A stretch of DNA of 64,000 nt from Gnetum montanum (lineage: Eukaryota; Plantae; Gnetophyta), in contig MNCI01002560.1 of NCBI GenBank assembly GCA_015680685.1, positions 509,920 through 573,919 of the forward strand. The letters run 5' to 3'. The translations under genes and the position numbers were made by a program. Shown here piece by piece: positions 9,187 to 50,573 of the stretch (position 1 is its first letter; each line of letters opens with the position of its first letter). Below the pieces are notes generated by a model, which ran no database searches, had not been told where the DNA came from, and worked only from the letters and a program-made list of their open reading frames with translations.

Positions 9187-9189
9187 CCA

Positions 9190-10681: not shown

Positions 10682-13600
10682 CATCATACATAGCTCCTTG
10701 CTTTATTAATAATTGATGAAGTTAGACAGGCCCTCTCAAAGAAATAGTACATGTAATTCAAGAGGTAAAATAGCTTCAGAACCATAAACAAGGCTATACA
10801 GAGTTACACCTATTGTAGTACAATATGTTTCTCGATATTTTCAAACTGCATGGAAAAGCTACTCATGCTACTTGCATTTACTATTATTTATCATCTTCTT
10901 AGGTAAGTTGATAATGGACTTATTACTTGCTTCTAATTTTCCATTGGCTTGAGGGTAATAAGGTGAGAAGAAAGAGTGCTTAATGTCTAGGTTGTGAAAG
11001 AAATTTTTTATTTCTTGGCTACTAAACTATGGTCTATTGTCTATGGCTATGATCATAGGTATACCAGCATGGGCTACTATATTGTCTAGGATGAATATAT
11101 AGATTTGTTCATATGTAGTATTCCTTAGGGAGATAGCCTCAACCCACTTAGTAAAGTATTTGGTTATGGTAATGATGAAACTATACCCTATGGATGAGTT
11201 AGGCATTATATGTTTAATGATATCCAACACCCATCATTGAAATAGTCATGTTATCAGAGTAGTGTGTAACTTAGTTAATGGTACATGTACTAGGTTACTA
11301 TGCCTTTGACATGTGTCACATCACTTTCTACAGCCAATAATTTTCCATATAAGGCTAGTAATAACCTAACTATCTAATCATAGTAGTCATGGCTCTAGGT
11401 TCTATATGTCCACCATAAACACCCTCATGAACCTTCTCTAGGACTATTTTGGCTTCGGCTCTATTGAAGAACTTGAATAATATACTATCATAAGATCATA
11501 GACATAGTGTATTATCGCCTAAAATGACATATAATTTTGATCATTTATGTACAAAATCCTTTTGAACAACAGTTTGGCCTTGTGAAGACTCACCATACAT
11601 AAGGTAAAACTTGATATCATCATACTGCTCCTTTATAGGAGTGGTATGAACTACAACAACAAACATATTCTCAACACTTTGCATGATGGAGATAGCACAA
11701 TTCATGGTTAAGGTGGACAACTAGCTAAAAACATTTGATGTAACACTAAGGGCTAGCATTGCAATTGCATTAGCTATGGAATTCTCATTTTGGGATACAT
11801 CTTAGATAGCAGCATCTATAAATTGTTGCAATAACGGTTTCCATAAATCATAGTAAGGTTGTAAATGTTTGGCTTTGCATGCGTAAACCTTGGTTACTTG
11901 GTTGACGAAAAGTTATGAATTTTCCTTAATTATCAAATTCTTAATTCATAGGCCATGAGCTACCATCATTCCTCTAATCAAACTTTCATACTTTGCTATG
12001 TTATTACTGCATGGAAACTCCAATCGATAGGTGAAAGATAAAATTTCACTCGATGAGAATGTTATGATGGAAAAGACACTAGCTTTGTGGTCAGTTAAAG
12101 CTCCATAAAAGTGCATGAGGCACCCATAATCCTTGAGCACTTGGCTAATGACATTGATGTGTTCATCAAGAAACTCAAGGTCAATAATTGCTTGGTCATC
12201 AATAGGTGAAATAGTAAGTTGTACAACTATAACTAGACCTTTCGTTGAGGAATAAGAGACTTAATGAAGGTCAAATTCCATTGTTATGGGTTTTCATTGG
12301 GCTATATGGATACTCTCATAAATATTGGTCATTATAGCTCTAGGTATGTTATTCTTGCAAATGACATTAACCTGGCTCCTAAAGAGGTAGTATCTCTACC
12401 TCTTTAATGAGAAGACTAGTGTTAAACAATACTTCTTCAATGAGAAGACTAGTGTTAAACAATACTTCTTCACTTTAGTATATCATGTCTCATGGGCAAC
12501 TAATGCATGGATAAGGTACTATACTAGCATCTCTACTCCATCATCACATTTTTGATAGTGTAGAAAGGTAACATACATGTTTGAGATAGAAATATAGATG
12601 TAAAATAATTTACTCTATTGTAGAGTATAGATTGTTAGTAGTTGTGCCAACTCTTGCTTAAGGATTTTAAAGGCTTCTTTGCATTGAGTCATCTGATCAT
12701 AGTGAACCCTTTTCTTAAGCAAGTATTACATGGATTGCAAATTATTTGTAAGCATAGTGATGAACATTCAAATAAATTGTAATATACCTTGTAGTCCCTA
12801 AAGCTCTTTGAGGTTAGTTGGTGCTACCAAGTTGGAGATGGCCTTAACCTTATCAAGATCAACATGTATCCTTGCTTCTAATACTACAAAGACAAGAATC
12901 TTATTAGTTTTGATACTGAAGACATAGTTCTTAGGATTAGGTCTATGTTCAAACTTAAGACATCATTTGAGAACAAGGTCTAGGTCATTAGCATGGTCAT
13001 TGGCTAGTTTGGACTTAACAACTATGTCATCTACATAATAGTTGAGGAATCCTAACATGTAGTAACTAAAGATATAAATCATGGATCTTTGATAGGTTAC
13101 CCCTAAATTCTTAAGGCCAAAATACATCATGGTATAGAAAAAGGTATCCCAAAGGTTGTGCTAAGTTAGTGCTCTAGTTTGATCCTAATTTGGTTGTAAC
13201 TCAAGAACCAATCCATAAAGGATAATAAGGCAAGGCTAGCTATAGTATCAATGAGTTAATGGATACTAGGCATAGGGAAATTGTCCTTTATCGTTGCCTT
13301 ATTTAGGTTTTAAAAATCAATTCAAATATAGATACCCTCATTTTCCTAGGGACTACCATGATGTTGGATACCCATTCCATGTAGTCAATAGCTCTAAGGA
13401 AACTAGCTTGGTATAGCTTGGTAATTTCATCACAAACTTCCATTGCTATGTTTGGTCTAATCTTGGACATTTTCAATTTAACTAGTCTAATTATAGGATC
13501 AAGTAAAATGTTGTGTTGGACTAATTTTGGATCTAAAACTAGCATATTTTCATAAGACTAGGCAAAGGCCTTATTGTTGTCTTGTAGAACCTTGGTGATG

Positions 13601-13900
13601 GCTTAAGTTTGTTGAGGTTCTAATGAGGAACATAGTTTAAGGATTTTCTCCTTACCACTATGAATTGTTACAAGAACCTCATCAAGAGAGTGTTTAGTAA
13701 TGTCACTAGCTCCTAGATCAAGATTTTTAACTAGGTTTTCAAGCCACTCTAGAAGCCTTTCAATTAAGGCTACATTGTTAATAAAAATCTTAGGCTTAAG
13801 ATCTAGATAATCAGGATCAATATATTGTTCAACATCACCATTATGCCCACTTAGGCTGAAAGGTAAGGTAATTTTGTCCAAGTGTCCAAAATTCAATCAT
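10682..13900 (-). pseudogene. pol: RT-RNaseH-aRH-integrase pseudogene of element B, truncated in the integrase C-terminal region
   Basis: ORF fragments LDPKLVQHNILLDP..., MHFYGAL...FPCSNNIAKYESLI, LDII...YFTKWVEAI; homologous to 5479-8965. Confidence 0.92.
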
Positions 13901-14377
13901 GCATATTAATCATAATCACATTAAGTGGAACCTAGGTAAAAATGAGTAAATAATGGTAGAATGATTTAGTAAACATGCAAACATATGATATTCCAATGAT
14001 GAACAAAAGTGAAAACAAGGTCAACCAAGGCTATGATAGACAAATAATGACTAATGGGATTAAACAAAGGGCACATAAGATTAATCAAAGGTCATAAGAG
14101 AGAAAATAAGGTAAACATGATAAAATAGGAAGTTATATGAAGGTTGTATAAAGTAAATTAATGAGAAAGAAGTTCAACAATGCAAAACAAGGTCAAATTT
14201 GTGAAAATGAAATACATATGACAAAAATTGTTTGATACTGGTCAAATAGGATTATATTTTACCAATTTTAGGCCTTAGCGGGCCATGGTATGGGATTATA
14301 GGGTTGCTAAGAGAGCTTGGGTAGATGCGTGTGTCATTCTAAAGCTATTTTGAAGCAAAATTAACATATTTTACTTT

Positions 14378-17300
14378 GACTATGCTAGGCCCTACTAGTG
14401 ACTAAGCTAGCCTAGCATAGTCCTACCTACCTATAGCATAGTTAACCTTCAATGGTAATTTATAGGGATTGAAATGGTCATTTTTGAGCTCCCACTAGGT
14501 TAAACAACTAGCATAGTGGTAGGTATAGAAAATTGGAAATTTTTGACACCATTTTGACTTTATATAAGGTTGAAATTCATGTTCCAAGAGGTGACTATGC
14601 TAGGCTAGTAAGCCTCAGCATAGTCACAAGGAATGACCAAGTCAAGACAAAGTGAAATTTTCTCTTGGATGGCCATGGGGACATGGTTTTGGTCATTCTA
14701 GGTTAATTGTAGGCCATTATGACTTGCTTACTATGAATTTTCATCACTACATGTTTCCTTCCAAGTGGGACTACACTAGCCTGACATAGTCCTTGGCCTC
14801 TGTAGCATAGTTATGAGTGGAAAATGGATTTTGGTGAGTTTTAGAGCTTGATCAATCATCCTAATGGGCTTTTGGGATTACTAGTGTTACCAGCTAGGGT
14901 TTTAGTGTAGAAATTATCAATTTTCATGCTTGTTTGGGCCTTGAATTCCAAAGGACCATAGGACTACATTAGGTATGTAGTTCCTAGCATATTCAAGGAT
15001 TGTAGTTGTAAAAGGGCTATGAAAGAATAAATTTTGGCTCATTTCCCAAGGTTCCAAGGTCTGGGCATGTTCTAACAATGTTCTATGTCTTTTTAGAAGT
15101 CAATTTCAGTATTTTTAGAGCTATTTTGGCCATGAACAAGTGGACTATAGTGGTCTTGGGTAGGGACTATGCTAGCCTAGTGTAGTCCCAATGCTTCCTT
15201 CAACATAGTCACATTGAAAAGGATGAAAAACTAAGTTTCTTTACTAAATTTAAATATGATGGGCCATGAAACTCCTATAAGTGTAGTTTATGTGATTTTG
15301 GTAAATTTTTGTAGAAGTTTACGTAGACTACGTTGGGCCTAGAGAGGGACTACACTAGCCTAGCATAATCCCAAATTTTTCTTATGTAGTCCATGCTCTA
15401 GAGGTCAAAAATTAAAAAAAATTATGTTCCAAAATCAGTCAAAATTCAAAGAGCCTCCAAGGTTCATTGATATGGAATTTGATATTTTTCTTTTGCAACT
15501 TGAGAATTTTAGTGGGGACTATGTTGGGGATTGAGGGGGGCTACATTGAGCTAGCATACGCCTAACTCATCCTTAGTGTAGTCATAGTTTGGGGGTTCAA
15601 GAATAGTGGATTTTAACTCAAATGTATGGTTTCAAAGTATTTTTGTGTCATAGAAAGGTCTTGTAGTTGATAGAGGTGTTTTTTGGGTTATATTTAGACT
15701 ACTATGAAGTTCATGGTGTGGACTACATTAGGCTTGGACTAAGACTACATTGATGTAGCATAGTCCTACCTTCTTACTAGTGTAGTCCAAGGATGGATGG
15801 TTATAGGGAGTTTCCATGGTGAACAAGGAGTTCCAAAAATGTTATAGAGTCAACTAATAGTAAACTAAGGTTATTTTGAGGAAACTTTAGTTCCTTTCTT
15901 GTGGACTACACTAAGCTTGAAGAAAGACTATGCTGGTCCAATGTAGTCCCAACCTTTCCTTAGTGTAGTCAAGGTTTTGGTAGTCAAAGATCATGAGAAA
16001 TTCAAGTTTTGAGATCACAGAGGCTTGGGTAGGCTTTCCAAGCTTGTCGATAGTAATTCTAGATCACATGGGATAGTTGTTGCATAGTTTATTGATGGAC
16101 TATGACGGGCATTAGGAAGGGACTACATCAGTGTAGTGTAGTCATCCTTCCCTCTTAGCATAGTCCAAGTAGGAATGGTCAAACTAGGTGTAAACAACAA
16201 GTTTTTGATGTTAAACTAGCTAGGATAGGGTGTTAGGATTTCTTCAAGGTCAAACTTCATACATTTTTGGTGTGTCTTGTCAATTTCAATGAGACTACAC
16301 TAGGGCATATAAAGGGACTACACTAGCCCAATGTAGTCCCTCTTCCCACCTAATGTAGCCATTATCAAAATTGTTAATATGTGATAAAAGAGTAGGTTTC
16401 ATGATCGTATAGGGCCAAAATAGGGTATTGGGGTTGACTAGTGCTAAGTTTCATGATTTTTGATGTTTCTTGGTAGCCTTAGTGGAACTACACTAGGCCT
16501 TGGGTAGGGACTACACTAGCCCAACATAGTCCCATCTCCCCATCTAGGGTATTCCATGTATGGATGCCAAAAGTGTAAAAGTGGTAAGATTTGGCTAAGG
16601 TTGATGCTCCAGTGTTTTCAAAAGTTCAAATATAATTCATAGATGATGGTCTCTTGGGTTTTTTGAGTGGACTACACTAAGAAATCACTGGGACTATGCA
16701 AGCTCAACATACTCCTCATAGTCCTAAATGTAGTCACATGTAGAAACTTAGTTTCATGGGATTTCTTAAGGAGTTTTATTGATCAACTAGTACAATGGGC
16801 TTAGTAGGGATCTTGGAAAGGTATGGAAGCTTTTAAAGGTAGTGTTGAAGGTGGGTAAAGGTCTCTATGATGCCTACCAATCCTAGAACCTTAGGACTAC
16901 ACTAGCCTAATGTAGTCCCTAGGTCTCCTTGGCATAGTCATGGGGAAATGGGAAAAAGTGGCATCATTAATTATAATTGATCATGCCTCATGCTTGTCAG
17001 AGGCTCAAACTAGCATTTGGTGAAATGCTGTCAATTCAAGGTTAATTAAGGGTTGAATGGATTGGGATAATTTCTTGAGGTTGTAGGAGGTAAGATGTGA
17101 TGTTGGACAATGCTAGGTAGTAGTTGTGCTAGCCCAACATAGTCCTTCAGTTCTCTTAGTGTAGTTAATGAGGAGGCTTGATTCTTGTCACACTTGGAGT
17201 GCTTTTGATCTATTTTTGCTACTATCAAGGGTTCTAGATAGGGTTTGATAAGGTTGGGTAGTTAATTTGGAGGCCTTTAGAAGTTGTATGGGCTATTGGA

Positions 17301-17645
17301 AGTCCATCCCATTATGGACTACATTGGTAATAGTTGGGACTACATTGGCCCAATGTAGTCCTTATCCTCCCTTTAGCATGGTCACTATTATGTTGTCAAA
17401 ACCTCTCATACTTGGCCACATTCTTATGTTGTAGGGCATCTAATCCAAGGTTTAAAGAGATAAGGTAGATGTGGTAGTTGTTTTATATATTAAGGTTGAC
17501 TACTCTTAATGTAGTCATGGCTTGGAGGTTGACTACTCTTAGTGTAGTCATGGCTTATTTTCCATTCTTGGAGCATCCAGTATGAGGCCTAGGTAAAATT
17601 AGTAATTTTTAAAAAAATATTTACACAACTCTAGCATAGTCCTAG
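14378..17645. repeat. ~190-bp-period array of GACTACGCTG-N3-CAGCGTAGTC-derived palindrome clusters (element B)
   Basis: Examples: gactacactagcccaatgtagtcc and gactatgctggtccaatgtagtcc; cluster starts 15143, 15326, 15517, 15721, 15904, 16098, 16293, 16488, 16670. Confidence 0.85.
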
Positions 17646-19512
17646 TTTCCATTTTTGAAGCCAATTTAAGTAAATTTCTAAAAGGAAACTAGGGTTCTGG
17701 GATGGGCACCTAGGTTTGGATTGGTTTTAAATTGGAAAACTTGGAAAAATTCTTGTTATTTGTCTTACTTCTTGCCATTGTGGCTTGGTTTGAGAGCTCT
17801 ATTTCCATTGTTGTTGCCCACTATCCTACTCAGCATAGTACTAACTACTTTTAAACAATTGCTACTATAGTCTAGCTATTAGTGCCAATTGCCAACATAA
17901 TAATTATAGGCTTACCCAAAAACCAAGGATTTCGTACATTCCAAGACCTATTTCTAATACCATGGTGAAAAAAATAGCTCCTATGAGGAATCTTGCATTA
18001 AAGGTGATGGATGCCAATGTTGAAAGCCTACCATGTTTGCCTCATCCAGGAATTGAGAAGAGTTCTACCATCGTCTTTCCCAAGTTCATGATTCTCACCA
18101 ATATCTAATATTTTTCATGTATTATATTTTTCAAATCTATGCTTGTGTATTTGTTATTTTTGTTCATTTTGTGAAACTGCTACCTCATATTTTGGTCTTC
18201 TCTATGTAGATCTAAGGCCACTTGGTTTTTTTTTTTTTCCCTTGGTAGATTAGATTTTTAAAATATGTTTGTGGTTTTGGTGCTTTTTTCTAAAAATTTT
18301 GTGTTATGGCCAATTTTTCTAGGTCTACACTACAATGTTAAGAAAAATTTGATTTTAAACAAATCCAAACACTTTATTTTGAGGTTTCTTTAATGTGGGT
18401 ATGATTGTTTTGACTATTTTGACTAGATCAAGTTAAGTCTCACAAGTTCTCTATTTTGGAATGCTTTTTTGAGGAAAAAAGAAAGTAATGTTATATATTT
18501 TTTATTAAGGAAATATCTATAATTTTGCAAAATATAAGATTATTAATTTTTATATCTATGTTTAAGGTTTCTAATGGCTGTAGTTCCATTTGATTTAGAG
18601 TTCTAATGATAAAATTATGGCCATTTGAGTTGGGTTGTGTAATTAGGTTTCTTTGCTATTTTTCAGATTTCATTAATGTTTATAATTTTTTAAAAAAAAA
18701 ACAAGGATTTTTAATTTTTTATTGCATGGGTATGTAGGATTGAATTTAATCTTTCAAATGGTGGTAGAATCACTCTATTTTGAGCTCAAAAAAAGTTTAG
18801 TAATTTTTTTTGCAACCTTGTGTGAAAGAGTTTTCATGTTGATGGCTATGGTTAAGCCACCTTGGTAATTTTTTTGAAAAATAGGTTAGTATTTTTAATT
18901 ATTTATTATTATAGGTATATATTTTAAGGTTTTATGATTCCAATAGCTATGGAATCATCATATTCTATTAAGAAGTTAATTAGTTATGGTTGTTTCTATT
19001 TGGTTGCACAAAATCATGGTTACAAGGTTGTTACGCATATACCCCTATGAAGATGGGTAATGTGGAGATTGTAAAAATTTTTTCTTCATCAATTTCCCAT
19101 GATCTTGGGGATAGTTTAGGATGTTAGGGAGAGGCTAAAAGTTTTTTGGATGAAAATGAAATATTTTTCTTATTTTTTCTAAGTGTTTTCCGATGGCCGT
19201 ATTAGTGTTAAGTGTGAAATTTGGTTGAATGTTGGTTGTGGACATGGGTTGTATGTTGAATTTTTTCTAAGTGTAGAATTTTAACATGGAAATTGAGAAT
19301 TTACTCTTATACTTTTAATTTCATGTTTTTCGTCCTAAGTTATCAATTCAATGTTTTTTCTCGTAATTTATTATTTTACAACTTTAGTTCTAAAGATTCA
19401 TTTTATATAAGCTATTTCAAATTTTTTCTAAGTGTTATTTTCTATGTTTAATGATTATAAGGCTTTGGTTTTAAGTTTTCATGATTATAATTATTTTTGT
19501 TTGATGTTATAG

Positions 19513-22500
19513 GGCCTTCTTGAAGCCCATTTTGGTGGTAATAAAGATGTGGACTATTTTGTTACATTCACCTCCTCGAGCCTAACTCCCCAGTTCCTGA
19601 TATGGAATGGGATCAAAATAGGATATGGTTTAGGCCAAGCACCAAATAATTAATTGCATACATCTTAAAAAACATTAGTGTGATGGTATGATCACACTTG
19701 ATGACTGAAGTTATAGCAATGATTATAGAGACCATCCTACTTGGGTCTTTTAGCTTAATCATTGAGTTTTTGATGAATGAACTTGAAGCTCATGTGGAGG
19801 GAGTGAGAAAATGATGGCACTACTACTATGGATTCTCAAAAATTGTTAACAATTTGGGAGATGCTAAAATTTAGTCAATATTATATGGAAAACCATATAA
19901 TTGTTGGCCATCATGCTCATACATTATTTTAGAATCCTGTAGGAACCATTTATCATGTAGAGGGGTAAGTAAGGATTTTTTTGGTTTATGGTTAATTTCT
20001 ATAGTTGTAAAATTAATTTATAACAATTTTTTATTATTTCACTTGCTTATAGGTTCAAGATGGATGAGTGGTGCTTGATCAAAGATGATAACCTCTTACT
20101 GCAAACCCATATAGCTTTAGAGGTATTCACCAAAAGCCCAAATGTAAGGCTTGTAGTGTTGGAATAGATAGAAGGTGACATTGAAGCTAGCTCAAACATC
20201 ATTCTAAGGCTTATACGAGATGCCTAGGGAATGGCACAATGGATAGCTAATGGATCAACCCATATCTCAATGACTTAGACATAAGCCCACCCCCTAGAGC
20301 TCCTAAGATGCCTAAATCTAATAGGCAAAGTAAGTGCTTTTATGCTTTGTTGATTTTAAGTTTTTTGAATACTACCATTTTTCTAGTTATTTTGATTTGA
20401 ATTATTTAAGTAGTTTTATTTGTGTTTTAACTTAGTTAAATTTTTGTTTTACATGATGCACCTATGCTAAGATTAGTGAGATATCCTTTCATTATGTTGT
20501 AGAGGCCACTCCATCAGTTGAAGTTACTATTGTTACTTTAGGACATGCTAAAGAGATCCTAATACTTAAGTTAGTGAGGTGGAATTCTCATAGGAATAGT
20601 TATCAAAACACATACTTGATGCTATACAAGTGAGAGGCATACACGTGGGCCTATTTGACCTCTTCATTAACCCAAGCTTGATTGTTCCCACTGTAGAGAT
20701 GTTGAACATAAATAACTACTATAGCCAAGGGGTTAAAAAGTTGATCACTTATGTTGATTGTGTGACCATTGTTATAGAGGTTATTTTATCCATCTTCAAT
20801 GACCTCTTTGGCATTCCAAATAATGGCATGCTAGTTATCACCAAAGTAGGTAGGGAGTTGGATCACTGGGAGGAAGTAGATAAGTTGCTAGACACACATT
20901 TTTGTACTAAGGGATACTTTCTCAAATAGATATAGTCACCATTGATTAGAGAAATGTATTCCTTATTTTGATCCTAGGGATTTCCTAAATTATTATTGCA
21001 AGGGAAGATCTTGGGCTTGGAGTAAGATTGGACCATGAAGTAGGTGCTTACTAAGGATGCTTGTTTCAATTAGGTTGCACACTTGGTTTCTAGGATATAA
21101 TGGGAGATCAAAAAGCTTGACAACAACCTCACTATGTAGTGTTATGACACTTTGCACTTTTTGTAGCTTATTTATGAAGGTTTTTAGAGTTTCTAGTGGT
21201 GTGGAAGGATGGATGATAAGTTATCCAAGATCCATCCCAACTTACCAAACCTTAGGTGAATCTCCTTGCTCTAACCACATACACCTAGGACCTACTAGAA
21301 GCTATGGGTGAGTCAATGTCTATTGCTATCAAGGATATTACTAGTAGGCATTATGTATCCCTTGATAGCATGGGGGTAGAGCCTCTCACAATACCATCTA
21401 GCATCAAGAAGGCCTAAAAACTACATAAAGAGGCTAAGGGAATAGCTAGGACTAAGCTTAAGAAGCCTTTAGCATATGAACCAGTACTCATGATCAAGGA
21501 TCCTTTGAAGAAGCAATAGTTGACCATCAAAATGATAGTGTATGTCATGAAGTTAGATGTATGTTATATCTTGGTTTATTACTCTGTTAATTTGTTTTAA
21601 AGTTATGGTTTTAAGTTAGTTACATATCTTCTTTTAGATAAATCTTGCTAAGTTGTCCATGTTCTTACAATTAATGTTCTTGTAGATAAGTAGCAAGAAT
21701 GGGAAGCTAGGGCTATAGTGGCAATAGCTGAGGCAAGCCAAAGGTGTTAGGAGGAGGAGAAGCTACAACACTAGGAAGAAAAATACTGAAACATTATGAG
21801 GATGATGTATTGAAAAAAAATGACTTACCCCCTATTCCACCTATGGGCTGCTTTGTTGCCATGCTAGAGAATCCACAAATGAGTGAACATCTTATTGGTA
21901 TATTGTATGGTCTCTTAGGTATGTATGATCTTCGATTTTACATGTTACTTTTCATTGATTCATGCCTTTTTTTTTCTATGGTTGTTAATTACTTACTACA
22001 CTTGTTATAGCCCAAGAGCCTAAGGAAGAAGCCTTCACTTCTACCTTTCACAAGATACCATGGGTGGAAACCCCAAATAACTTAAATCTATGTGGGATGT
22101 AGCTAAAGATATGATTAACTACTTGTAGTAGATAACTCTTGAGATTGGTAAGAATTTTATCTCATTTTTCCTTTACCATTTTTTACATTTTTAGTCTTTT
22201 ATTCAATTTCCATGGTTATGTAGCTTTTTGTTACTACGTGATTTTATTCATTATACATTGCTTTATGTTGGTTAAAGTGCCTAAATTGACATGGGATCCT
22301 GACAAGCCAATGAAGGTTGATGCATCACCTTCTTTACCGTTTAATTTAGAGAATGTCCCACATGGGCTATATGAGGATGCCACTGGATGTGCACTCTGAT
22401 GTGCTAAGTCCCTATGGAAATGTAGATTCTTTAACAAGTTCCTATAAGAACAAGTTGTAGGATAGACCTCATGGACCATAGATACTTCATAGAAGTCCAA

Positions 22501-23220
22501 GTGGATAATAGAAACTTGTTGCGCACTAGGGATATAACTTGGGCTTGTTATTGGAGTGTAGTACAAGGAAAGGCTTTTCTTGTGATCTAAGTAGTATAAC
22601 ATAAGCTCCAAATTGATCTCATCAACCACAAGGTTGGTGAGTGGAAAGATTACTATAGTTGGTTCCTTAAGTGAGGTCATACACAAAAGGATCACAAACA
22701 AACATACAAAGCTGAATGGGATGCCTACCTGAACTAGCTAAAGGAGGAGTCTATGGAGCAATGTAAGCTAGAATTGTTCATGATGGGCACCAATGTAGAA
22801 GAGGTGTATAAGATGTTTGTAAAGAATGTGATTGTAGATAACTCCCCTATTCATTAGGTTACTATTTCATCAAGGGAAACATCCACCACCACGTTCTTGC
22901 ATGAACCTCCTACATGGAGTGACATTGATGGGACTAATATCCTAATGAGTATTGATCTTGTAGAAATGGATTGGGCCAACATGTCTAAAGACCAAATCCC
23001 CCACCATGTAGAGTTTGGTCTTCAAAACTTCCTTAAAGCACATGTAGTTCCAAAACCATATTAAGTTTTCTTACTTTTAATTTTATTTTTTTTGTTTAAG
23101 TTATTTATTTTGTCTTTATATGTATTGGTTACTAATCAATTATGTGTTACCATGTTAGACGTACTAGAAAACATTGGTGGCCCCAGTGGTGAGGGTGAAG
23201 ATTACACTATATCTCCTTAA
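19513..23220 (+). pseudogene. Antisense ~7-exon accessory gene of element B (decayed; product unknown, one exon resembles plant-transposon accessory proteins)
   Basis: GT/AG-bounded AT-rich introns; exons about 19513-19964, 20053-20329, 20503-21550, 21686-21918, 22011-22147, 22278-23060, 23159-23220; protein-level and splice-site conservation with 59501-62948. Confidence 0.75.
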
Positions 23221-23298
23221 TCATATGCCCCTTAGTTTCCTCAATTACTTTTCCATTTCAGTTGTTTTGATTTCATGTTGATGATGATGTATGGCTAG

Positions 23299-24538
23299 TG
23301 ATGAGTGGCAAGGTACCCCTACACTCCACCATACGAATATGAGCGTACACGCGCGATCCGGTCGAACTCCGCAGACTAAATGCCTTAACGCCACAAGAAA
23401 CACTTGGGGTTAATCATTCGTTGTCTTCCCAGGCTTGCTTGTATGTGTCACGGTGTATGGTTAAGCAAGTCTGAGGTATGTGATTTTTTTGGTATTTTCG
23501 GCTTATCTTCTATGCTACTAGGAGAAAGGGTTGAGAAAACTAAACTAACTCTTACTAAGATCTAACTCTAAATTAACTAGCGTCAGCATCCGTTCCCACT
23601 TACCGGACACACCCTGAACTATGCAACTGCAGCTTACCAAACGCTAATCGTTACTGGGATCGCCACACGTAACGCAAGTGCTCGAAGTGGTCGTACTGAG
23701 GCACCTATTTAGCCTACGTGTGATAAGCAGCCGATTCCTTAGCCAGCCGTACACACCCGTGGGTGCTCGTAACTAAGTCGTACTTATCACACGATCTAGC
23801 CTAGCAATGAGCAGCCGATTCCTCAACTAGCCGTACACATTAGACCCGGGAGTTACCAAGCGCAGAATCCTGGAATACGCTACTGGGTTACCAAGCATCC
23901 AATGCTCGTAATTGAGTCGTACTCATGCATTGCGTCAAGCAGCCGATTCCTTGACTAGCCGTACACGTCCGTAGACGCTCGTAATCAAGTCGTACTTGAA
24001 CGCACTAGGAAAGCAGGAAATAAAGCAATAAATGAAACCACGTGCTGCAAGGTTTATCCAAACAAGTTCGTCTTTATTGCCGTACACAACTTGGGTTCAG
24101 GTTACAAGCTGCTCGAATAAAGAGCCGTTCACTCTAGGACTCCTACTGCGGGCACATGGGGAAAAACTCTAACTCTGGAGTGATCAGTCTGCCAGAGCTT
24201 CGCTACACTAGCCAGGATTTGGAAAATAAAGGGAGTGCCACCTCTTATTTATAGATATGGCGGCGGGACGCGATATCGCGNNNNNNNNNNNNNNNNNNNN
24301 NNNNNNNNNNNNNNNNNNNNNNNNNNNNNNNNNNNNNNNNNNNNNNNNNNNNNNNNNNNNNNNNNNNNNNNNNNNNNNNNNNNNNNNNNNNNNNNNNNNN
24401 NNNNNNNNNNNNNNNNNNNNNNNNNNNNNNNNNNNNNNNNNNNNNNNNNNNNNNNNNNNNNNNNNNNTGATGCGATATCGCGACGGCCGCGATATCGCGT
24501 ACGCGATATGGCGGCCTAGTGTAAATCGCGTCTCATCA
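23299..24538 (-). repeat. 3' LTR of the young element (contains N gap 24281-24467)
   Basis: Same sequence as 30061-31260 (offset 6762); flanked by the PPT-like motif at 24539-24553. Confidence 0.96.
23580..24004 (-). ncRNA. Same four-module structured array (3' LTR copy)
   Basis: Matches 30342-30766 except for about 2 substitutions. Confidence 0.78.
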
Positions 24539-24553
24539 TACCCCCATGACTGA
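24539..24553 (-). promoter_or_regulatory. Polypurine-tract-like motif adjacent to the 3' LTR
   Basis: Minus strand TCAGTCATGGGGGTA immediately precedes the 3' LTR; same core at 25142-25154 and 26589-26601. Confidence 0.7.
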
Positions 24554-26372
24554 ATGAAAACTCGTCCTCGAGTTCCTTACAATGATATCAGGTAGGTATG
24601 GGATTATTAGGGAAAATGGAACTAATGGGATGACATGTGAACGGTCTTTATTACAAGACTTGACAAAAACTGGTGTTCATGACAACATGGGTGAACACCT
24701 TATTACAATGACATCAGGCCACAGTTGGCAGCTGAGAGAAAAGAGGAGAGAGAATAGAAGAGAAGAAGAGAGAAGAGTCTTGTTGCTGCCAACGCCTAGA
24801 TTGCGCCTTTCGTTGTCCATCTGTAAGCGCATTATCAATTCCACTCCTTGCATGCTGCTTCAGCGCTGCTCCATTCCAAGTGTCTGCTCCAGATCCATTC
24901 CGTTGTTGTATGATTGCCATCTGCACACACAACACAATCACATATTAGCAAGGGTAATTGAATTAGTAAGTAACGAATACCTTGCTGCGGTTTGGGTTCA
25001 TTGACTAAGTTGTGGTATGGCTGATATGGATCTAGGAAAATGTAGATGATGATTACCGAAGGTATAGGGGTTAGGAAGAAAAATGAAAAAATCCGGGGCT
25101 TAGGATAAAGATCGAAAAATCAGGCGAAAAATTAGGCCCCGTACCCCCATGACTAATCGCGAACCTCCGGTAGCGTTAGAATGGAAAGAGAAAAGGGGTA
25201 GGAATGATAGGTAAAAGGGAACAACTATGGCATCGATAGAAAGGATGTCCTTATGGAAATGAACAAAAATGTTAATTAATTGCAAAACGTTAAGGAAAAG
25301 AAGTTAACTAATGTTCCAAATAGGAATGTCAGTGGGTCCTCCCCAAAGCAGGCTCATGCCCTTAATGCCCTGACAATCCCACATTCAAAGAGTCCGTGGG
25401 CTCTGGGAATGTCCTTTGGAACAAGAGTTAAAGTCTTAACCGTAAGAATTTACCAAAAAGAAAACAAAGCATCAACCAAAGTATATACAATGATACAACC
25501 GGCAATGAGGTGAACAATGGAGAGAAGGATGGGAAGAAGAGAAGTGGAATGGAATCCCAAGAACAAGGTGGTGTACAGCCCCTTGTGTGTTTCATGATTA
25601 ATGTGACTTGGCGAATCTCATTCCAACTCTGGCCTCAAACCAACCACTTCCAGTGACTTCGCATCAATGCAGTTGGTTAAATCATCCACTTGGGTAACAA
25701 GGATGCAACTTCGAGAAGCCACCACCATTCCGACGAAACAACAGAGAGAATGGGAAGCGAGAAGGGCCTTAGTTAGAGGGAACACTTTGGTTCCATAACC
25801 AGTGCTTGTAGCCCAAATTTATTCCGTCTAAGGGGTGTGCTTTGAATCCTCACTTTTAGCTTTTTAGCTTTTTCTTCTTCTCTTTTTTCTGTTTTTCCAT
25901 TTTTTTTTTTCTTTTTTTTGTTTTGTGTTTTTATGCGTGGGGACCACACCATGCAAAGACTTCTTTATTTTTATTGTCTCAGCTTCCGATTATTGGGTTA
26001 CATCGGAACGGTAAGAAAACCCAAGAAGAAAACATCCAAGCACCCAAGTGAATGACCAACACAAGAGCACCAAGTTCCCTTGAAGTCACACCCTTTTCAA
26101 ATCCTTGAGTCCTTCCTTAGTTTGAGAAATGCCCAGTCACTGGTTCGTTAAAGTTCTTATTGGAAGGGAACTGTACATTTCCAAGCCAAGGGAAACCATA
26201 GACTTGATGGATGGATGGATGAAGTGATCTCATTGCCTGCCATATCAAAAGAACATACCTTAGTATCAACAATGTAACTTAAAGGTAAAAACCAAACATT
26301 AGCAATTAATGAAAAACAGTTCATCCCATCGGCCCGAACACTTATTGGGTGACGAATTTACATGATGGATGA

Positions 26373-26550
26373 CACACACACACACACACACAAAAAGATA
26401 GAAAAATATAACGATGTTGTAAAACAAAAACAAGAAAAGTTAAAGAAATTTGTAAAACAAAAATTAGAAAAGTTAAAGAAATTGTAAAACAAAAATGTGA
26501 AAAACAAAAACGTTGTAAAACAAAAATGTGTAAAACAAAAACTGAAAAAG
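26373..26550. repeat. (CA)n microsatellite followed by TGTAAAACAAAA-type A-rich repeats
   Basis: Directly visible; U-rich on the element's sense strand just after the gag-PR stop. Confidence 0.8.
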
Positions 26551-26569
26551 AACTGAGGGCCCCATATGA

Positions 26570-29500
26570 TTAGCATAGGTGGCCATCTCCCCCATGACTG
26601 AGTTGTGAGGGAGAGATCCGAAGTAGTGAGCGCCTATTTGAATTTCTAAGCAGTGCCCAACTTCTCCAAATTGATGATCTTAAATTCAGGGTTGGAAGTT
26701 GGCGACGCTCACGTTCCAGTGTATCTATGCCACGGTTGTTGGCATGAGTTGCCTCAGTTCGTTCCATGCATATTTGTTTGCCCTTATGAGAAGCTGTCAA
26801 CCACGGGGTGTCTACTACTTCTTGTGTGGTTGCTACATACAGGCATCTTTGTTGCAGAGTTTCCTGGGCACACCTGTGACATGGAGACATTTCCTCCGTG
26901 TCATCACCCGATGAATCACTGTATGTGATGCATGGAACTATCCTCTTCTCGATCTTTCCACATATGTTTATCTTGGAGATTTCCAAGGAAAGATCACGGA
27001 TCCTAAGGCATGCATCTACTGTGCTTAGCCATGCCCTTCCCATTATAATTGGGAAGTCCCCTTCGTTGTTGTTAACATCGATCACTAGGAAGTCTGCTGG
27101 GTAGGACCAACCACACACAGTGGTGATAACGTCCTCCACCAAACCCAATGGGATGGCAATGGACTGGTCTGCCAGCTCCAGTTGAATGTTGCTCTTCTTA
27201 AGTTGGGGCAGGTTCCAGGCGTGATACATCTTTCGCGAAATTAAGTTGACTCCGGAACCTGAGTCAAGAAGAGCTCGATGTGGCGCATTCCCAGCGATCT
27301 GCAAATGAATAAAGGGACTCCCAGGGTCAGTTAGTTTCCTGGGAAGGTGGCCTACCTTGATCCAGTCAGTTACGGTATGTGTTAGCATAACCGTATGCGT
27401 TACATTCCCTTGGACTGAAGGGTGCTCCGAAGTGTTAGTAGTTAGAGGCCTATACATATACCCGTCCGCTTGTTGTTGCGAGAGCCTATCCGGGCTCCTA
27501 GTTCTGAAAAAGGGTCTCCTTTTTGTACAGTTATCGCCAGAACTAGTGTCCGGTTGGATATTTACACTCTGAATATTTACAGATCTCGCGGCGTGACGTT
27601 GCTGCGGTTGGGTAGGTAATTCCCCTTGCATTGTTGGAGCAGGAGGTGTTATGGGAACTACTTGAGGAAAAGGTGCGGGTGGAGTTAGAGGATGGACAGA
27701 ATGTGGAATGTCTCCCGGAGGAGAAGGAGTCCTTCTGAAGTACTCCCGAGCGTAGTAGTGACGGCGTGGAGTGTGACTCATAGCGTCACCTGGAGAAACT
27801 GGCTGCTGCACATAATAACCATAAGGATCAGGCTGCCGGTAAGGGTATCGATGTGTTGGCTGTGGCATCCCCCATGACTGTGGGTATTGCCACTGCTGAT
27901 GTTGCTCGATGGGCTGCGGAGGTGTTCCACTTGGATAATACGTCAAGGGTTGGTGGAACTGCCTCGGGTTACCTTGTGGATAAGGTAACCTTCTGGGTGT
28001 TTGCCGTTGATTAAGTCTTGGATTTAATGCATACACCCCAGACTCCTGCAGATGTGAGATAATTGGACAACATCCCTTAGGATGGTCATAATAGCAGACC
28101 TCACATCCACCGTCATTGTCTGAATCAGAATTTTCAGCCTCATCGGAGTTAGAGATTTTTCCCTTACCCTTGTTATGTGCAGGGTTAAAGTTTCTCCGCT
28201 TGTCTTTGCTTTTATCACTACTTTGCTCATCCTTAGACTCTTCTACAATTTTCAGGACTGTTTCTATTCGTGAGTCTAAGGAATCCCACATTTGGTCTAC
28301 CTTAGCCGATACCTCCGTTGTTAACTTTTGGATCGGCACAGTTTTCCTGTTCACCAACTCTTCGAGTGGTGACTCATCCTCCTCATCACAGAATTTCACT
28401 CCCTTCTTACGAAGGGAGGGATCACGGTTGTATTCCTCCGCACTTTCTCTTTTCCGTAGCTCACCCTCTTCTTGCGCTACTTGTTCCAACAATACTTCAA
28501 CTTCATGGGCTCTTAGTTGGGAGAGTCTCCCTTGGGCGTAAGTCCCAAGAGTTCTTCTCGTTTCATTTCGTAGCCCATCCACGAGGTGGCGAAGTTGATC
28601 CCGCTTAGCGTACCCATGGCCCGGGCAACGATGTAGCAATGTGTAGTAACGGGCCATGGCAGCATCCAAGGATTCATGAGCTCCTTGTTTCCAGCCTTGG
28701 ATCTGCTTACGCAAGTTAGACACTCTGGAGTACGTTTGATATTTGTTGTTGAACAATTCGAGCATCGTACTCCACCTCCTGATGGTTTCCGGTTCTAAGG
28801 ACCGGTACCAGCTTTCTGCTTCTTTAGTGAGTGTCCTTGGGAACAACTTGAGTTTCTGCCACTCATTGTCTATGTTCTGCAAGGCACAGGCGTCGTGGAA
28901 TGCCTGTAAATGATGTTGAGGATCAGCGTTGTATCCCCCTTCAAAACGTGGGATATTATTTATATCCAAACGCTTGATCCTACTGTCTTTCAAATGCCTT
29001 GTGGGAATCCTAACTGCCTCTCTAATGTCAAGCATACTTCGGGTTGCGAATAGGGGTTCGTCATGATCATCTCTTTCATGACGTCTGTGATGTCTACGTT
29101 GTGGTTCCCTATTCTCCCTACGTCCTTGCCCTTGTCCTAACTCCTCTCGACCTTCTTGTCGAGGCATTTCATCTCTTTTACCTTTACTCTCCGCGTTATG
29201 CTCATGGTGGCTGCGCCCAGATGTGGAAGGAGAGGGTGAATGATGTGATGAAGGGGAAGAAGAAGGGGATCCATCACCATGGTGATGTTTCTTGCCTTCT
29301 CTTCGGCTGCTTCGGCCCCGATCGTTGTGACGATCAACGAGTCCGTCATTAGTGCGAGTGATTGTTCCTGCCGTGAACAGCTGGTGCTCACGGGGATCAG
29401 AGCCTGGAATATGTATCGTTGATCTAAGGCCCTGATGCCTAACCTCTTCACCAGAGTGAGGAGGAGGAACATCATTTTCTAAGAAACCCGTTGTGAGGGG

Positions 29501-29914
29501 TTCCTCGTCTCCTATTTCACTAATGACGTGGGAAACCTTGCCCTTCAGTAGTGAATGTTGGCTCTCCTGCCTTGCATCCCGAATACGTTGGGCTTTTGTG
29601 GGTTGATAATCCCTCAGAGTGTAATCATCCGCAACGTATTCAGTAATCAGCTCTTGCATGCCATACCGTACCAAGGCACGGAAAAGCATGTTGGAAGCAG
29701 ATCGATCTGGGGGTAACACGATGTTACCTTGCATGTCTCTCCACCGCAGTTGCTCATCTTGATGGAAAACAAAGGTAAAATCCGGCACATACTCATCGGG
29801 ATGAGTATATGTGACCTTAGATTGTTGAGGACATGGTTGATCTCGGTTATGCGTATGATGCTGACTTTCTCCTGTATTGTCCTTAGGTGAGTTGATTTCG
29901 TGAGAAGAAGCCAT
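26570..29914 (-). CDS. gag: Gag-aspartic protease polyprotein, 1114 aa, uninterrupted
   Basis: Retrotransposon-gag core KLKLFPRTLTKEAESWYRSL...WSTMLELFNNKY; zinc-knuckle variant CEVCYYDHPKGCC; protease ALLDSGSGVNLI...IIMGRAWL; no RT YxDD, RNaseH or integrase motifs. Confidence 0.95.
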   Translation of the reverse strand: MASSHEINSPKDNTGESQHHTHNRDQPCPQQSKVTYTHPDEYVPDFTFVFHQDEQLRWRDMQGNIVLPPDRSASNMLFRALVRYGMQELITEYVADDYTLRDYQPTKAQRIRDARQESQHSLLKGKVSHVISEIGDEEPLTTGFLENDVPPPHSGEEVRHQGLRSTIHIPGSDPREHQLFTAGTITRTNDGLVDRHNDRGRSSRREGKKHHHGDGSPSSSPSSHHSPSPSTSGRSHHEHNAESKGKRDEMPRQEGREELGQGQGRRENREPQRRHHRRHERDDHDEPLFATRSMLDIREAVRIPTRHLKDSRIKRLDINNIPRFEGGYNADPQHHLQAFHDACALQNIDNEWQKLKLFPRTLTKEAESWYRSLEPETIRRWSTMLELFNNKYQTYSRVSNLRKQIQGWKQGAHESLDAAMARYYTLLHRCPGHGYAKRDQLRHLVDGLRNETRRTLGTYAQGRLSQLRAHEVEVLLEQVAQEEGELRKRESAEEYNRDPSLRKKGVKFCDEEDESPLEELVNRKTVPIQKLTTEVSAKVDQMWDSLDSRIETVLKIVEESKDEQSSDKSKDKRRNFNPAHNKGKGKISNSDEAENSDSDNDGGCEVCYYDHPKGCCPIISHLQESGVYALNPRLNQRQTPRRLPYPQGNPRQFHQPLTYYPSGTPPQPIEQHQQWQYPQSWGMPQPTHRYPYRQPDPYGYYVQQPVSPGDAMSHTPRRHYYAREYFRRTPSPPGDIPHSVHPLTPPAPFPQVVPITPPAPTMQGELPTQPQQRHAARSVNIQSVNIQPDTSSGDNCTKRRPFFRTRSPDRLSQQQADGYMYRPLTTNTSEHPSVQGNVTHTVMLTHTVTDWIKVGHLPRKLTDPGSPFIHLQIAGNAPHRALLDSGSGVNLISRKMYHAWNLPQLKKSNIQLELADQSIAIPLGLVEDVITTVCGWSYPADFLVIDVNNNEGDFPIIMGRAWLSTVDACLRIRDLSLEISKINICGKIEKRIVPCITYSDSSGDDTEEMSPCHRCAQETLQQRCLYVATTQEVVDTPWLTASHKGKQICMERTEATHANNRGIDTLERERRQLPTLNLRSSIWRSWALLRNSNRRSLLRISPSQLSHGGDGHLC

Positions 29915-30041
29915 TTCTATTGGTGTGCTAACTTCACCGTTATTTATTGTTCTTGATTAACTGATTAACCCTAAGGTTCGTTTTAAGCTCACAACGATGT
30001 GAGTGATATCCCTTATGTTAAATTGGCGAAAAAACACTTAG

Positions 30042-30059
30042 TCCCCGGCAACGGCGCCA
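30042..30059 (-). promoter_or_regulatory. Primer-binding site complementary to the tRNA-Asp 3' end (Athila-type)
   Basis: Minus strand reads TGGCGCCGTTGCCGGGGA one base after the 5' LTR, complementary to plant tRNA-Asp ...TCCCCGGCAACGGCGCCA. Confidence 0.93.
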
Positions 30060-30341
30060 ATGATGAGTGGCGAGGTACCCCTACACTCCACCATACGAAT
30101 ACGAGCGTACACGCGCGATCCGGTCGAACTCCGCAGACTAAATGCCTTAACGCCACAAGAAACACTTGGGGTTAATCGTTCGTTGTCTTCCCAGGCTTGC
30201 TTGTATGTGTCACGGTGTATGGTTAAGCAAGTCTGAGGTATGTGATTTTTTTGGTATTTTCGGCTTATCTTCTATGCTACCAGGAGAAAGGGTTGAGAAA
30301 ACTAAACTAACTCTAACTAAGATCTAAGTCTAAATTAACTA

Positions 30342-30766
30342 GCGTCAGCATCCGTTCCCACTTGCCGGACACACCCTGAACTATGCAACTGCAGCTTACC
30401 AAACGCTAATCGTTACTGGGATCGCCACACGTAACGCAAGTGCTCGAAGTGGTCGTACTGAGGCACCTATTTAGCCTACGTGTGATAAGCAGCCGATTCC
30501 TTAGCCAGCCGTACACACCCGTGGGTGCTCGTAACTAAGTCGTACTTATCACACGATCTAGCCTAGCAATGAGCAGCCGATTCCTCAACTAGCCGTACAC
30601 ATTAGACCCGGGAGTTACCAAGCGCAGAATCCTGGAATACGCTACTGGGTTACCAAGCATCCAATGCTCGTAATTGAGTCGTACTCATGCATTGCGTCAA
30701 GCAGCCGATTCCTTGACTAGCTGTACACGTCCGTAGACGCTCGTAATCAAGTCGTACTTGAACGCA
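30342..30766 (-). ncRNA. Array of four structured cis-RNA modules in U5/5' leader (5' LTR copy)
   Basis: Units 30342-30464, 30479-30555, 30566-30690 and 30693-30766 share conserved loop sequences while stems differ by compensatory changes; G-U pairs and cUACGg/cCACGg loops favour the minus strand. Confidence 0.8.
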
Positions 30767-30835
30767 CTAGGAAAGCAGGAAATAAAAGCAATAAATGAAA
30801 CCACGTGCTGCAAGGTTTATCCAAACAAGTTCGTC

Positions 30836-30841
30836 TTTATT
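30836..30841 (-). terminator. Putative LTR polyadenylation signal
   Basis: Minus-strand AATAAA ~170 nt downstream of the TATA box, followed by a U-rich tract (~30778-30800). Confidence 0.5.
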
Positions 30842-31008
30842 GCGGTACACAACTTGGGTTTAGGTTACAAGCTGCTCGAATAAAGAGCCCTTCACTCTAG
30901 GACTCCTACTGCGGGCACATGGGGAAAAACTCTAACTCTGGAGTGATCAATCTGCCAGAGCTTCGCTACACTAGCCAGGATTTGGAAAATAAAGGGAGTG
31001 CCGCCTCT

Positions 31009-31017
31009 TATTTATAG
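31009..31017 (-). promoter_or_regulatory. TATA box of the young element LTR
   Basis: Minus strand CTATAAATA just downstream of the GC-rich U3 array; present in both LTRs. Confidence 0.75.
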
Positions 31018-31031
31018 ATATGGCGGTGGGA

Positions 31032-31238
31032 CGCGATATTGCGTACGCGATATCGCAGGAGAAGATGCGATATCACGTACGCAATATCGCATGTGATGCG
31101 ATATCGCGACGGCCGCGATATCGCGTACGCGATATCGCGTACGCGATATCGCAGGAGAAGACGCGATATCGCGTACGCAATATCGCATGTGATGCGATAT
31201 CGCGACGGCCACGATATCGCGTACGCGATATCGCGGCC
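31032..31238. repeat. CpG-dense palindromic array (GCGATATCGCGTAC units) in U3
   Basis: Repeated gcgatatcgc/gcgtacgc palindromes with a duplicated ~82-bp block; the other LTR is an N gap here but shows the same flanking units. Confidence 0.92.
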
Positions 31239-50570: not shown

Positions 50571-50573
50571 TTG

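Follow-up and report, generated by a model that had tools for sequence, protein, structure and literature searches.

Spacers and accessory genes in related elements

In the Ogre elements of pea and Medicago, the spacer between the gag-protease (gag-PR) and reverse transcriptase (RT) regions is an intron that is spliced from some of the transcripts (PMC6317226; PMC4408406). Antisense accessory genes beside tandem arrays are also present in other Tat elements, including Retand, Grande (gene 23), RIRE2 and gymnosperm TatIII (PMC7264820; PMC11963269), and Grande gene 23 is driven by a promoter of its own and yields a nuclear product (PMC7264820). A review has called for searches for antisense and spliced transcripts of plant LTR retrotransposons (PMC7264820). 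Outside the Tat clade, VANC proteins bind short motifs in the tandem repeats of non-coding regions, the motifs of related VANCs being at least 2 bases apart (PMC5735166).

We analysed a 64,000-nt stretch of the Gnetum montanum genome (hereafter the window), in which remnants of Ty3/gypsy elements, labelled A to D, accompany an intron-rich gene. The element resembles Ogre in its domain order, RT-RH-aRH-INT, and in the non-coding region that parts gag-PR from RT, but differs in that i) the Ogre spacer averages 274 bp, whereas that found here is about 10 kb and holds the gene and an array, ii) the extra ORF of Ogre is 5', in sense and often contains a plant mobile domain, whereas the present gene lies within the element on the opposite strand and its frames gave no Pfam match to this domain, and iii) Ogre was described from angiosperms, whereas this element comes from a gymnosperm. 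The antisense ORFs described in the papers cited here for Tat elements lie 3' of pol, whereas this gene lies between the protease and RT and has 6–7 introns; compared with Retand, it is located 5' of RT and its frames show no Pfam match to PF04195. The domain order is that of structure #1 of the gymnosperm Tat J/K elements. The two papers that map the position of aRH (PMC10508981; PMC13468544) contain neither "eORF" nor "intron" in their main texts.

Two more distant systems are worth noting. Like VANC, the gene has exons and introns, lies within a transposon, changes fast and is accompanied by family-specific motifs in non-coding tandem repeats (PMC5735166). The arrays of elements B and A have different cores; element C has no array. 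However, VANC belongs to the VANDAL (MuDR) DNA transposons and contains DUF1985/DUF287, whereas this gene is in a retrotransposon and neither domain gave a Pfam match in its frames, which, as decayed single frames, lower the sensitivity of the search. VANC motifs are 8–9 bp and not palindromic, whereas the candidate binding sites described below are palindromic. The LTR retrotransposon Cer1 likewise has an accessory gene, CERV, that is spliced from several exons and lacks outside homologs (PMC10309623), but CERV is in sense, has exons in common with gag and functions in RNA export, whereas the gene described here is antisense.

An antisense gene between the likely protease region and RT

By its domain order, the host is a decayed Tat-type Ty3/gypsy element. 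The parts of the elements in the window are as follows:

5461..8962, plus strand: RT-RH-aRH-INT of element A; the acceptor-like TAG before it ends at 5460
10420..13931, minus strand: decayed RT-RH-aRH-INT of element B (Pfam RVT_1 at E 0.0026, RT_RNaseH_2, RVT_3 and rve); 3' end approximate
23299..31260, minus strand: young insertion with Gag and protease only; LTRs 98% identical, GCTAG target-site duplication
31883..35300, minus strand: decayed gag-protease region of element B; candidate GT donor at 31883, 5' end approximate
35960..35976, minus strand: primer-binding-site-like motif upstream of gag, element B
39136..41916, minus strand: decayed RT-RH-aRH-INT of element C; acceptor-like TAG ends at 41917
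63783..64000, minus strand: tail of the protease region of element D (score 80, maximum of shuffles 39); candidate GT donor at 63783

In the pol of element B, RVT_3 (residues 665–748) follows RT_RNaseH_2 (439–525) and precedes rve, and a T-rich acceptor-like TAG ends at 13932. The gag-PR region of this element, scanned as far as 35500, had no Pfam match; its gag aligns to the Retrotrans_gag region of the young insertion (reached by 0/100 shuffles), its likely protease was recognised by motifs only (5/100 shuffles), and the tail of the region is homologous to that of element D. The degenerate primer-binding-site pattern, presumably that of Tat elements, matched once with 0 mismatches and twice with up to 2 mismatches, against 0.05 expected. 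No LTR pair for element B was found between 8.9–10.7 kb and 35.3–39.2 kb, nor was a target-site duplication, and its 3' end looks truncated relative to element A. The placement of the gene inside an LTR retrotransposon, proposed in the initial annotation, is supported by the domain order and the primer-site-like motif but not by LTRs or a target-site duplication.

The young insertion breaks element B directly beyond the 3' end of the gene; the element is continuous through it, as seen from the 5-bp duplication and the homology between B and D on either side. The gene is antisense to the Ty3/gypsy pol, in agreement with the orientation previously assigned to it relative to the genomic RNA, and sits between the likely gag-protease region and RT, a position that the initial annotation had missed, in a spacer of about 10.0 kb (young insertion excluded) with candidate GT and TAG ends. 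Beyond its 3' end, the tail of the protease region is found in both B and D. In elements A, B and C, RT is preceded by an acceptor-like site and, farther upstream, by a stretch resembling exon 1. The exons are as follows:

17962..18083, plus strand: likely exon 1 of gene B; ATG at 17962, phase-2 GT at 18084
19513..19964, plus strand: exon 2 of gene B; score 175 against a shuffle maximum of 55, splice sites
20053..20329, plus strand: exon 3 of gene B; score 108 against 41
20503..21558, plus strand: exon 4 of gene B; score 223 against 52, without a Transposase_32 match
21686..21918, plus strand: exon 5 of gene B; set by splice signals, poorly conserved
22011..22147, plus strand: exon 6 of gene B, with PWVETP; score 65 against 34
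22278..23064, plus strand: exon 7 of gene B, the best conserved; score 373 against 46, 3' donor approximate
23159..23220, plus strand: exon 8 of gene B, with the stop at its end; score 38 against 35
59501–59941, 60022–60293 and 60412–61409, plus strand: exons 2–4 of gene D, from translated and codon alignment and splice sites
61501–61674, 61762–61886, 61975–62796 and 62885–62958, plus strand: exons 5–8 of gene D, on the same evidence
42541..42665, plus strand: likely exon 1 in element C, probably part of gene D
1147..1270, minus strand: likely exon 1 in element A; the remaining gene would fall beyond the left end of the window

Gene B (19513–23220) and gene D (59501–62958), the two copies in which the gene beyond exon 1 was compared, have seven colinear exons (2–8) and six GT-AG introns in common, the exons summing to 3004 and 2906 nt, respectively, close to the 3 kb estimated earlier. 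With the likely first exon, the gene would likely have eight exons and about 1,000 codons. Their translated alignment comprised 17 HSPs, of which the main ones follow the same order on the plus strand at 25–55% identity, and recovered every peptide pair that the initial annotation had quoted as shared; the donors (19965 and 59942) and acceptors (20052 and 60021) given there proved exact. All 12 model introns, six in each gene, are of the form GT...AG, with lengths of 80–173 nt and 46–60% T on the plus strand. In a frameshift-aware codon alignment, exons 2, 3, 4, 6, 7 and 8 exceeded 100/100 shuffles, while similarity was not above chance in exon 5 (score reached by 21/100 shuffles) or in any of the six introns (6–71/100). 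No internal duplication was found among exons 2, 4 and 7.

For exon 1, elements A, B and C share a GT at the same codon of the alignment, in a phase that fits exon 2 of gene B. The alignment itself is weak, the scores being reached by 5/100 (B/C), 15/100 (B/A) and 0/100 (C/A) shuffles. Exon 1 of element C, whose phase is one base off that of exon 2 of gene D, probably belongs to this gene across nested insertions and two N gaps. The intron-1 DNA of element A is 62–72% like that of B. Because of the likely first exon at 17962–18083, the exon previously numbered 3 is exon 4 here; its suggested resemblance to Transposase_32 (PF20167) did not hold up, no Pfam match to this family being obtained with frames of exons 2, 3, 4 and 7 under E cutoffs of 1 or 10. 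An unrelated decayed gene is present at 44.5–45.9 kb of the window, and it is there, at 44.9–45.2 kb, that a weak Transposase_32 match (E 0.0058) was located, with no alignment to exons 4 or 7.

Coding history, homologs and transcripts

The protein of this gene was under purifying selection in the past. Between genes B and D, identity at codon positions 1 and 2 exceeds that at position 3 by 0.203, as compared with 0.07–0.09 (sd about 0.02) in neutral simulations passed through the same aligner, and stops make up 3.8% as compared with 5.3–5.8%; neither value was reached by any of the 240 simulations, in line with the protein-level conservation claimed before. The simulations were used in place of dN/dS, since shuffles run through this aligner mimic it: the plain values (pS 0.73, pN 0.39) were discarded as evidence, shuffled sequence having given pS 0.85 and pN 0.44. 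In-frame stops amount to 2.8% and 4.5% in the gene and 3.2% and 4.1% in pol, against about 8% over all frames. Both copies are dead, which the initial annotation had not mentioned: they contain 24 and 39 stops over 871 aligned codons, and 12 frameshifts separate them. Fast third positions, together with stops as rare as in pol, mark this as a protein gene that died with its element, and selection acted across families with 65% similarity in pol. The strand score was 944 for plus versus 612 for minus; the codon-position pattern also reached 0.163 on the minus strand and cannot fix the strand by itself. A frame-blind period-3 test of exons 2–8, of low power (3 and 23/500 permutations for pol), was not significant (63/500).

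Homologs were sought in several ways. Pfam searches with 12 and 11 frames of the gene gave no domain, the only match being START_2 at E 0.25. In a set of 5.8 billion proteins, exon 4 yielded 256 candidates among the longer proteins, none at E ≤1, and an exon-7 alignment yielded 253, none at E ≤0.1; a profile built from four rows, with some intron sequence wrongly included, had 0 matches among 1.84 billion representatives. The best match to PDB sequences had an E of only 0.11, and in the JGI metagenomes the 17 pattern matches of exon 7 and the 54 of RT included none that was confirmed. The exons did not match the gene at 44.5–45.9 kb or the 3' region of the young insertion. A match to a host gene or a DNA-transposon transposase, which would have spoken against an accessory gene, was likewise absent from Pfam and the protein sets. 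Since all queries were decayed single frames, these blanks are weak. AlphaFold gave a pLDDT of 28.9 for exon 4 from a two-sequence alignment. The highest 19-residue hydropathy, 2.19, occurred in exon 4 of gene B only, and there is no strongly hydrophobic run.

Two poly(A) RNA runs contained 44 and 35 reads matching positions 13000–23290, nearly all of them partial and less than 90% alike, which gave some slight coverage of exon 4 and RT but hardly any of the array; no read in this region joined across any intron or at the acceptor end of the spacer. Two further runs were dominated by poly-A/T matches. The reads are a faint hint, of transcribed relatives only.

The palindromic array and its interpretation

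Repeated sites were found in three regions, listed without strand:

1350..4785: array of element A, period about 180 bp; TCC-RYRY type core, 21–22 bp spacings, 9/14 exact window matches
14378..17641: array of element B, about 17 monomers, period about 190 bp; core GACYRYR-N9-YRYRGTC
36604..37426: B-type half-sites upstream of the primer site, 2 strict and 7 with one mismatch; Poisson P about 5e-5 against the window background

The array of element B, likewise not noted in the initial annotation, lies between the gene start and RT, and its cores are often flanked by extra half-sites 22 bp away. A core search found 9 exact sites against 0.01 expected; 12 of the 13 sites in the window fall in this array, and the 9-nt spacer occurs in 13 of 19 relaxed sites when spacers of 5–13 are scanned. 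The cores are 46% alike and their flanks 30–34%. The fixed spacer, the 22-bp phasing and the conservation of cores above flanks suggest selection on the sites. Of the 30 strict matches of the B motif in the window, 28 fall within the spacer; the other 2 lie beyond the primer site on its upstream side, in what is likely the 5' LTR region of element B. Element A, whose pol is 72% like that of B, has an array of similar period with a different core, and in element C, where exon 1 is only about 620 bp from RT, there is no array.

That the element carried a heritable antisense accessory gene between protease and RT is highly probable. Granting this, the odds that its protein was an array binder fall slightly short of even, and our preferred reading as a whole is held tentatively: a decayed antisense gene in a Tat spacer, whose protein may have bound the palindromic array and activated or shielded the element. 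The spacer would be an enlarged Ogre-type intron, spliced out of some sense RNAs, joining Gag-PR to RT, and retained in the genomic RNA. A promoter close to the array may have driven the gene, whose introns would outlive reverse transcription because the genomic RNA is the opposite strand, as proposed before. The protein would recognise the motif of its own family, motif and protein changing together between families by analogy with VANC proteins and their targets, and when bound it would activate the element or protect it against silencing. For the transactivator or anti-silencing role suggested in the initial annotation, the array is circumstantial support. No homolog or domain indicating DNA binding was found in Pfam, the protein sets or the PDB, which is evidence against such a binder. 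Somewhat more doubtful is the wider proposal that a gymnosperm Tat lineage turned an Ogre-type intron into a 10-kb cassette, with an eight-exon antisense gene of a new family and co-evolving, VANC-like self-activation or anti-silencing through arrays in the element and LTR.

Among the alternatives, it is unlikely, though less so than the others, that the gene is real but the array is an ordinary Tat repeat or a host-factor promoter, the protein acting otherwise (as a chromatin partner or a particle or movement factor). Elements of the Tat clade commonly contain tandem-repeat arrays, which do not require a binder encoded by the element, and about half of the recently active Retand elements bear family-specific arrays of unknown function (PMC11963269); the arrayless element C and the missing DNA-binding domain agree with this. 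However, the spacing, phasing and conserved cores suggest selected sites, the B motif recurs upstream of the primer site, and the protein has no strongly hydrophobic run to mark env-like pieces. It is improbable that the protein was a Rev- or CERV-like RNA factor exporting intron-retaining genomic RNA, with the array as its RNA response element. The genomic RNA has to keep a spacer of about 10 kb with splice-like ends, the spliced CERV gene of Cer1 does such work in C. elegans (PMC10309623), and palindromic cores could form hairpins, but element C lacks the array and no hairpin covariation was found in it: half-site linkers pair no more within (0.24) than between (0.29) monomers, as reached by 1780/2000 permutations, in a test blurred by deamination.

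An equally improbable origin is a DNA transposon with a CACTA TnpA-like gene and subterminal sites that landed in an ancestral Tat spacer and was perhaps later used. With its many introns, the first of them long, and the paired inverted motifs next to it, the present gene resembles TnpA of En/Spm and its sites. A DNA-binding pocket is predicted in TnpA (10.1101/2024.04.02.587720), and the introns indicate a DNA-level origin. Nevertheless, a crude CACTA pattern revealed no end around the unit, its one match being elsewhere, at 9563 (decay may have erased old ends), no transposase Pfam match was found, and selection across families with 65%-alike pols is not expected of a passenger. This possibility explains origin and is compatible with the preferred reading. 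Least probable by far is an accident of nesting or assembly that brought together a gene, gag-PR and RT from separate elements. The missing LTR pair and the N gaps and duplicated, inverted join near 58.4–58.7 kb favour it, but the order from protease tail to gene is repeated in B and D, all three of A, B and C repeat that from exon 1 to RT, and the motif specific to B links the primer-site region with the spacer.

The gene is accompanied by a candidate target, the array of palindromes, which is regularly spaced, specific to the family and found again near the primer site; this makes the idea of a regulator directly testable. If true, the preferred reading would add a new protein family and would help to explain the spread of Tat elements in giant genomes with heavy methylation. 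Whatever the mechanism, the distance of 10 kb between gag-PR and RT affects the annotation of such elements. The window also contains a structure #2 element, in which aRH precedes RT; the pairing of structures #1 and #2 has been reported in Gnetum, Ginkgo, and cupressophyte or yew genomes (PMC10508981; PMC13468544).

Gene structure and coding history

All peptide pairs quoted in the initial annotation as shared by gene B (exons 2–8, 19513–23220, +) and gene D (exons 2–8, 59501–62958, +) lie within 17 HSPs from a translated comparison of 19450–23290 with 59400–63050, and the main HSPs are colinear on the + strand. B and D are homologs in protein sequence; the pair is absent from the DNA self-comparison of the window. 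The seven-exon model in each copy gives introns of 80–173 nt, all 12 of them GT-AG, with a T content of 46–60% (exons, 29%). With a frameshift-aware codon aligner, six of the seven exons beat all 100 shuffles in the B/D comparison; exon 5 was not above chance (21/100 shuffles reached its score) and none of the six introns beat all 100. The aligned blocks of exons 3, 4, 6, 7 and 8 begin no more than 11 nt (1–11 nt) from the acceptor. A likely exon 1 of about 41 codons, with GT at equal codon phase and weak similarity by the same aligner, is found upstream of RT in element B (17962–18083) and in two further elements, A and C. We infer that the RT and exon 1 of C belong with D, a link spanning nested insertions and two N gaps. 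The summed exon length of gene B corresponds to a product of about 1,040 codons. Both copies are dead: the 871 aligned codons contain 24 stops in one and 39 in the other, along with 12 frameshifts.

The codon alignment score (944 versus 612 on the other strand) and the splice signals fix the coding strand as +. Plain dN/dS, proposed in the initial annotation, was dropped as evidence of selection since the aligner yields the same pattern from shuffled DNA; because it is misleading with this aligner, neutral simulations were used in its place (three divergence levels, two ancestor kinds, 240 runs, same aligner; exons 2, 3, 4, 6 and 7). Identity at codon positions 1 and 2 exceeded that at position 3 by 0.203 (simulated, 0.07–0.09) and the stop share was 3.8% (simulated, 5.3–5.8%), neither value being equalled in any of the 240 runs. 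A frame-blind period-3 test, which barely detects pol, was not significant for the whole gene (reached by 63 of 500 permutations); for exon 2 alone it was reached by 7 of 500. In-frame stops are as scarce in the gene (2.8% and 4.5%) as in the adjoining pol (3.2% and 4.1%), compared with about 8% over all frames; 46% of those in the gene sit opposite Q, W, R or a further stop, the pattern that post-insertion deamination would produce. Our conclusion is that purifying selection acted on the gene during family divergence and that the gene then decayed along with the element.

Searches of Pfam, of two large protein sets, of PDB sequences and of metagenomes yielded no relatives of the gene product; as the queries were decayed, these negatives are weak. 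AlphaFold gave no usable model (pLDDT 28.9). The suggested resemblance of exon 3 of the initial annotation (exon 4 here) to Transposase_32 finds no support from Pfam. A different gene, decayed and apparently spliced, at 44921–45151 (−) inside about 44100–46000, matches that profile weakly (E 0.0058, below the cut-off) and fails to align to the accessory gene. A faint RNA signal (few reads, from relatives) covers exon 4; among the RNA reads placed on the gene B region there were no splice joints.

Position within element B and placement in Tat

The features bearing on the layout are as follows.

13931 to ~10420, −: RT, RNase H, second RNase H (RVT_3) and integrase of element B (Pfam)
~35300–31883, −: gag-protease of element B, far upstream of RT
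35960–35976: primer-site-like motif beyond gag-protease (degenerate pattern match)
47129–51990, +: another Ty3/gypsy element with long LTR, Retrotrans_gag and zinc knuckle; further piece at 58688–59353
~52000–58620, −: younger Tat element, structure #2 (aRH before RT)
5166–5251, 8998–9048, 31516–31574 and 63331–63545: short GGCCTTAAACTAG-type repeat with a 29-bp period

No protease was found directly before RT in element B; a T-rich stretch ending in TAG is there instead, and one also precedes RT in A (5460) and C (41917). The gag-protease had no Pfam match. Its gag part aligns (0 of 100 shuffles) to the Retrotrans_gag region of an 8-kb element at 23299–31260, a later insertion in B with a 5-bp duplication; the protease part, reached by 5 of 100 shuffles, is presumably a protease by its motifs, and the motif at 35960–35976 is a candidate primer site. 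No LTR pair was found in a search of element B. Discounting the young insertion, a spacer of about 10.0 kb separates the protease tail from RT. An order of gene, homologous spacer and homologous protease tail (minus strand) is repeated in D, and it is very improbable that the order of gag-PR, antisense gene and RT is an accident of nesting or assembly. The architecture is real and unusual; the evidence for it comes from two decayed copies of the gene within a single window.

A second RNase H in the arrangement RT-RH-aRH-INT marks the Tat clade (PMC6317226), and by domain order B would be a J/K-type Tat element, close to the branch with Ogre and Retand. The younger Tat element has aRH before RT, an order known from gymnosperms and some clubmosses; both orders occur together in Gnetum, Ginkgo and cupressophytes or yews, according to PMC10508981 and PMC13468544, which makes it likely that the host is a gymnosperm. 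The layout resembles that of Ogre, where the spacer has a mean length of 274 bp and is removed by splicing from part of the transcripts (PMC6317226); element B falls outside both Ogre and Retand as defined. We found no account, in the literature searched, of an antisense protein-coding gene of several exons lodged between protease and RT. Such elements could already be listed in the tables of elements of PMC6317226 and PMC10508981, in gymnosperm genome papers or in subscription papers.

The palindromic array and possible functions

The spacer separating gag-PR from RT contains the antisense gene, which is of spliced type and was under past selection, next to a family-specific array of palindromic sites (14378–17641). 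In B the array is flanked by RT and exon 1, and its steps measure 166–227 bp. The pattern GACTAYR-N9-YRTAGTC has nine exact matches (0.01 expected); with one mismatch allowed in a relaxed form of the pattern, 12 of 13 sites in the window fall in the B spacer, and spacings other than 9 give 0–2 sites apiece. Extra half-sites lie beside the core at 22 bp, and a strict 11-letter half-site matches 30 times in the window, 28 times within the spacer and twice upstream of the primer site. Similarity among monomers is 46% in cores and 30–34% in flanks, the variable positions being those open to scrambling by CG and CHG deamination; the linkers show no pairing within monomers. Element A has an array of B-like period whose core differs (9 of the 14 exact window matches to the A core lie there), and motif searches of the window with the B and A patterns found no array in C.

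As a whole, the following reading is plausible but short of probable. The spacer would be an enlarged Ogre-type intron retained in genomic RNA, and the introns of the gene would never be lost because the genomic RNA is presumably the opposite strand. The antisense gene would be driven by its own promoter, as is Grande gene 23 (PMC7264820), and its product would bind the array and the LTR-region sites, activating the element or countering methylation in the manner of VANC in VANDAL elements (PMC5735166). The function may be similar to that of VANC, outside which, as defined, the product falls. The multi-exon antisense transcripts described for Arabidopsis Copia elements are non-coding (10.1101/2024.04.02.587720).

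Against this reading stand several others. It is unlikely, if by no means far-fetched, that the array has nothing to do with the protein. A captured DNA-transposon unit comprising gene and array seems improbable, and we are similarly doubtful of a Rev/CERV-like RNA export factor. RT could also be expressed through a promoter in the spacer rather than by splicing.

Neighbouring elements and sequence features

In old elements, e.g. 10690–23220, CG, CAG and CTG are strongly depleted (observed/expected 0.08–0.38) and TAG and CTA are in excess, and the depletion is far weaker in the young insertion; this loss is the signature of long-standing CG and CHG methylation. The young insertion (−) has LTRs of about 1 kb that are 98% identical, with CGCGATATCGCG-type repeats, and one open frame of 1128 codons that encodes Gag and protease; none of the frames listed for it is an RT, and it is likely non-autonomous. 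The second LTR piece of the 47129–51990 element adjoins the first conserved exon of gene D. Near 58.4–58.7 kb, N gaps together with a join that is duplicated and inverted point to assembly trouble. On the element sense strand, the GGCCTTAAACTAG-type repeat comes after the protease region in both B and D; in A it is found ahead of RT as well as behind integrase. Elements A and B meet tail to tail (8960–10700). Since the 3' region of C passes directly into the upstream region of B (35980–38700), these two elements may be arranged in tandem, with a shared LTR. The RNase H region of B contains a 33-bp tandem duplication (12397–12472).
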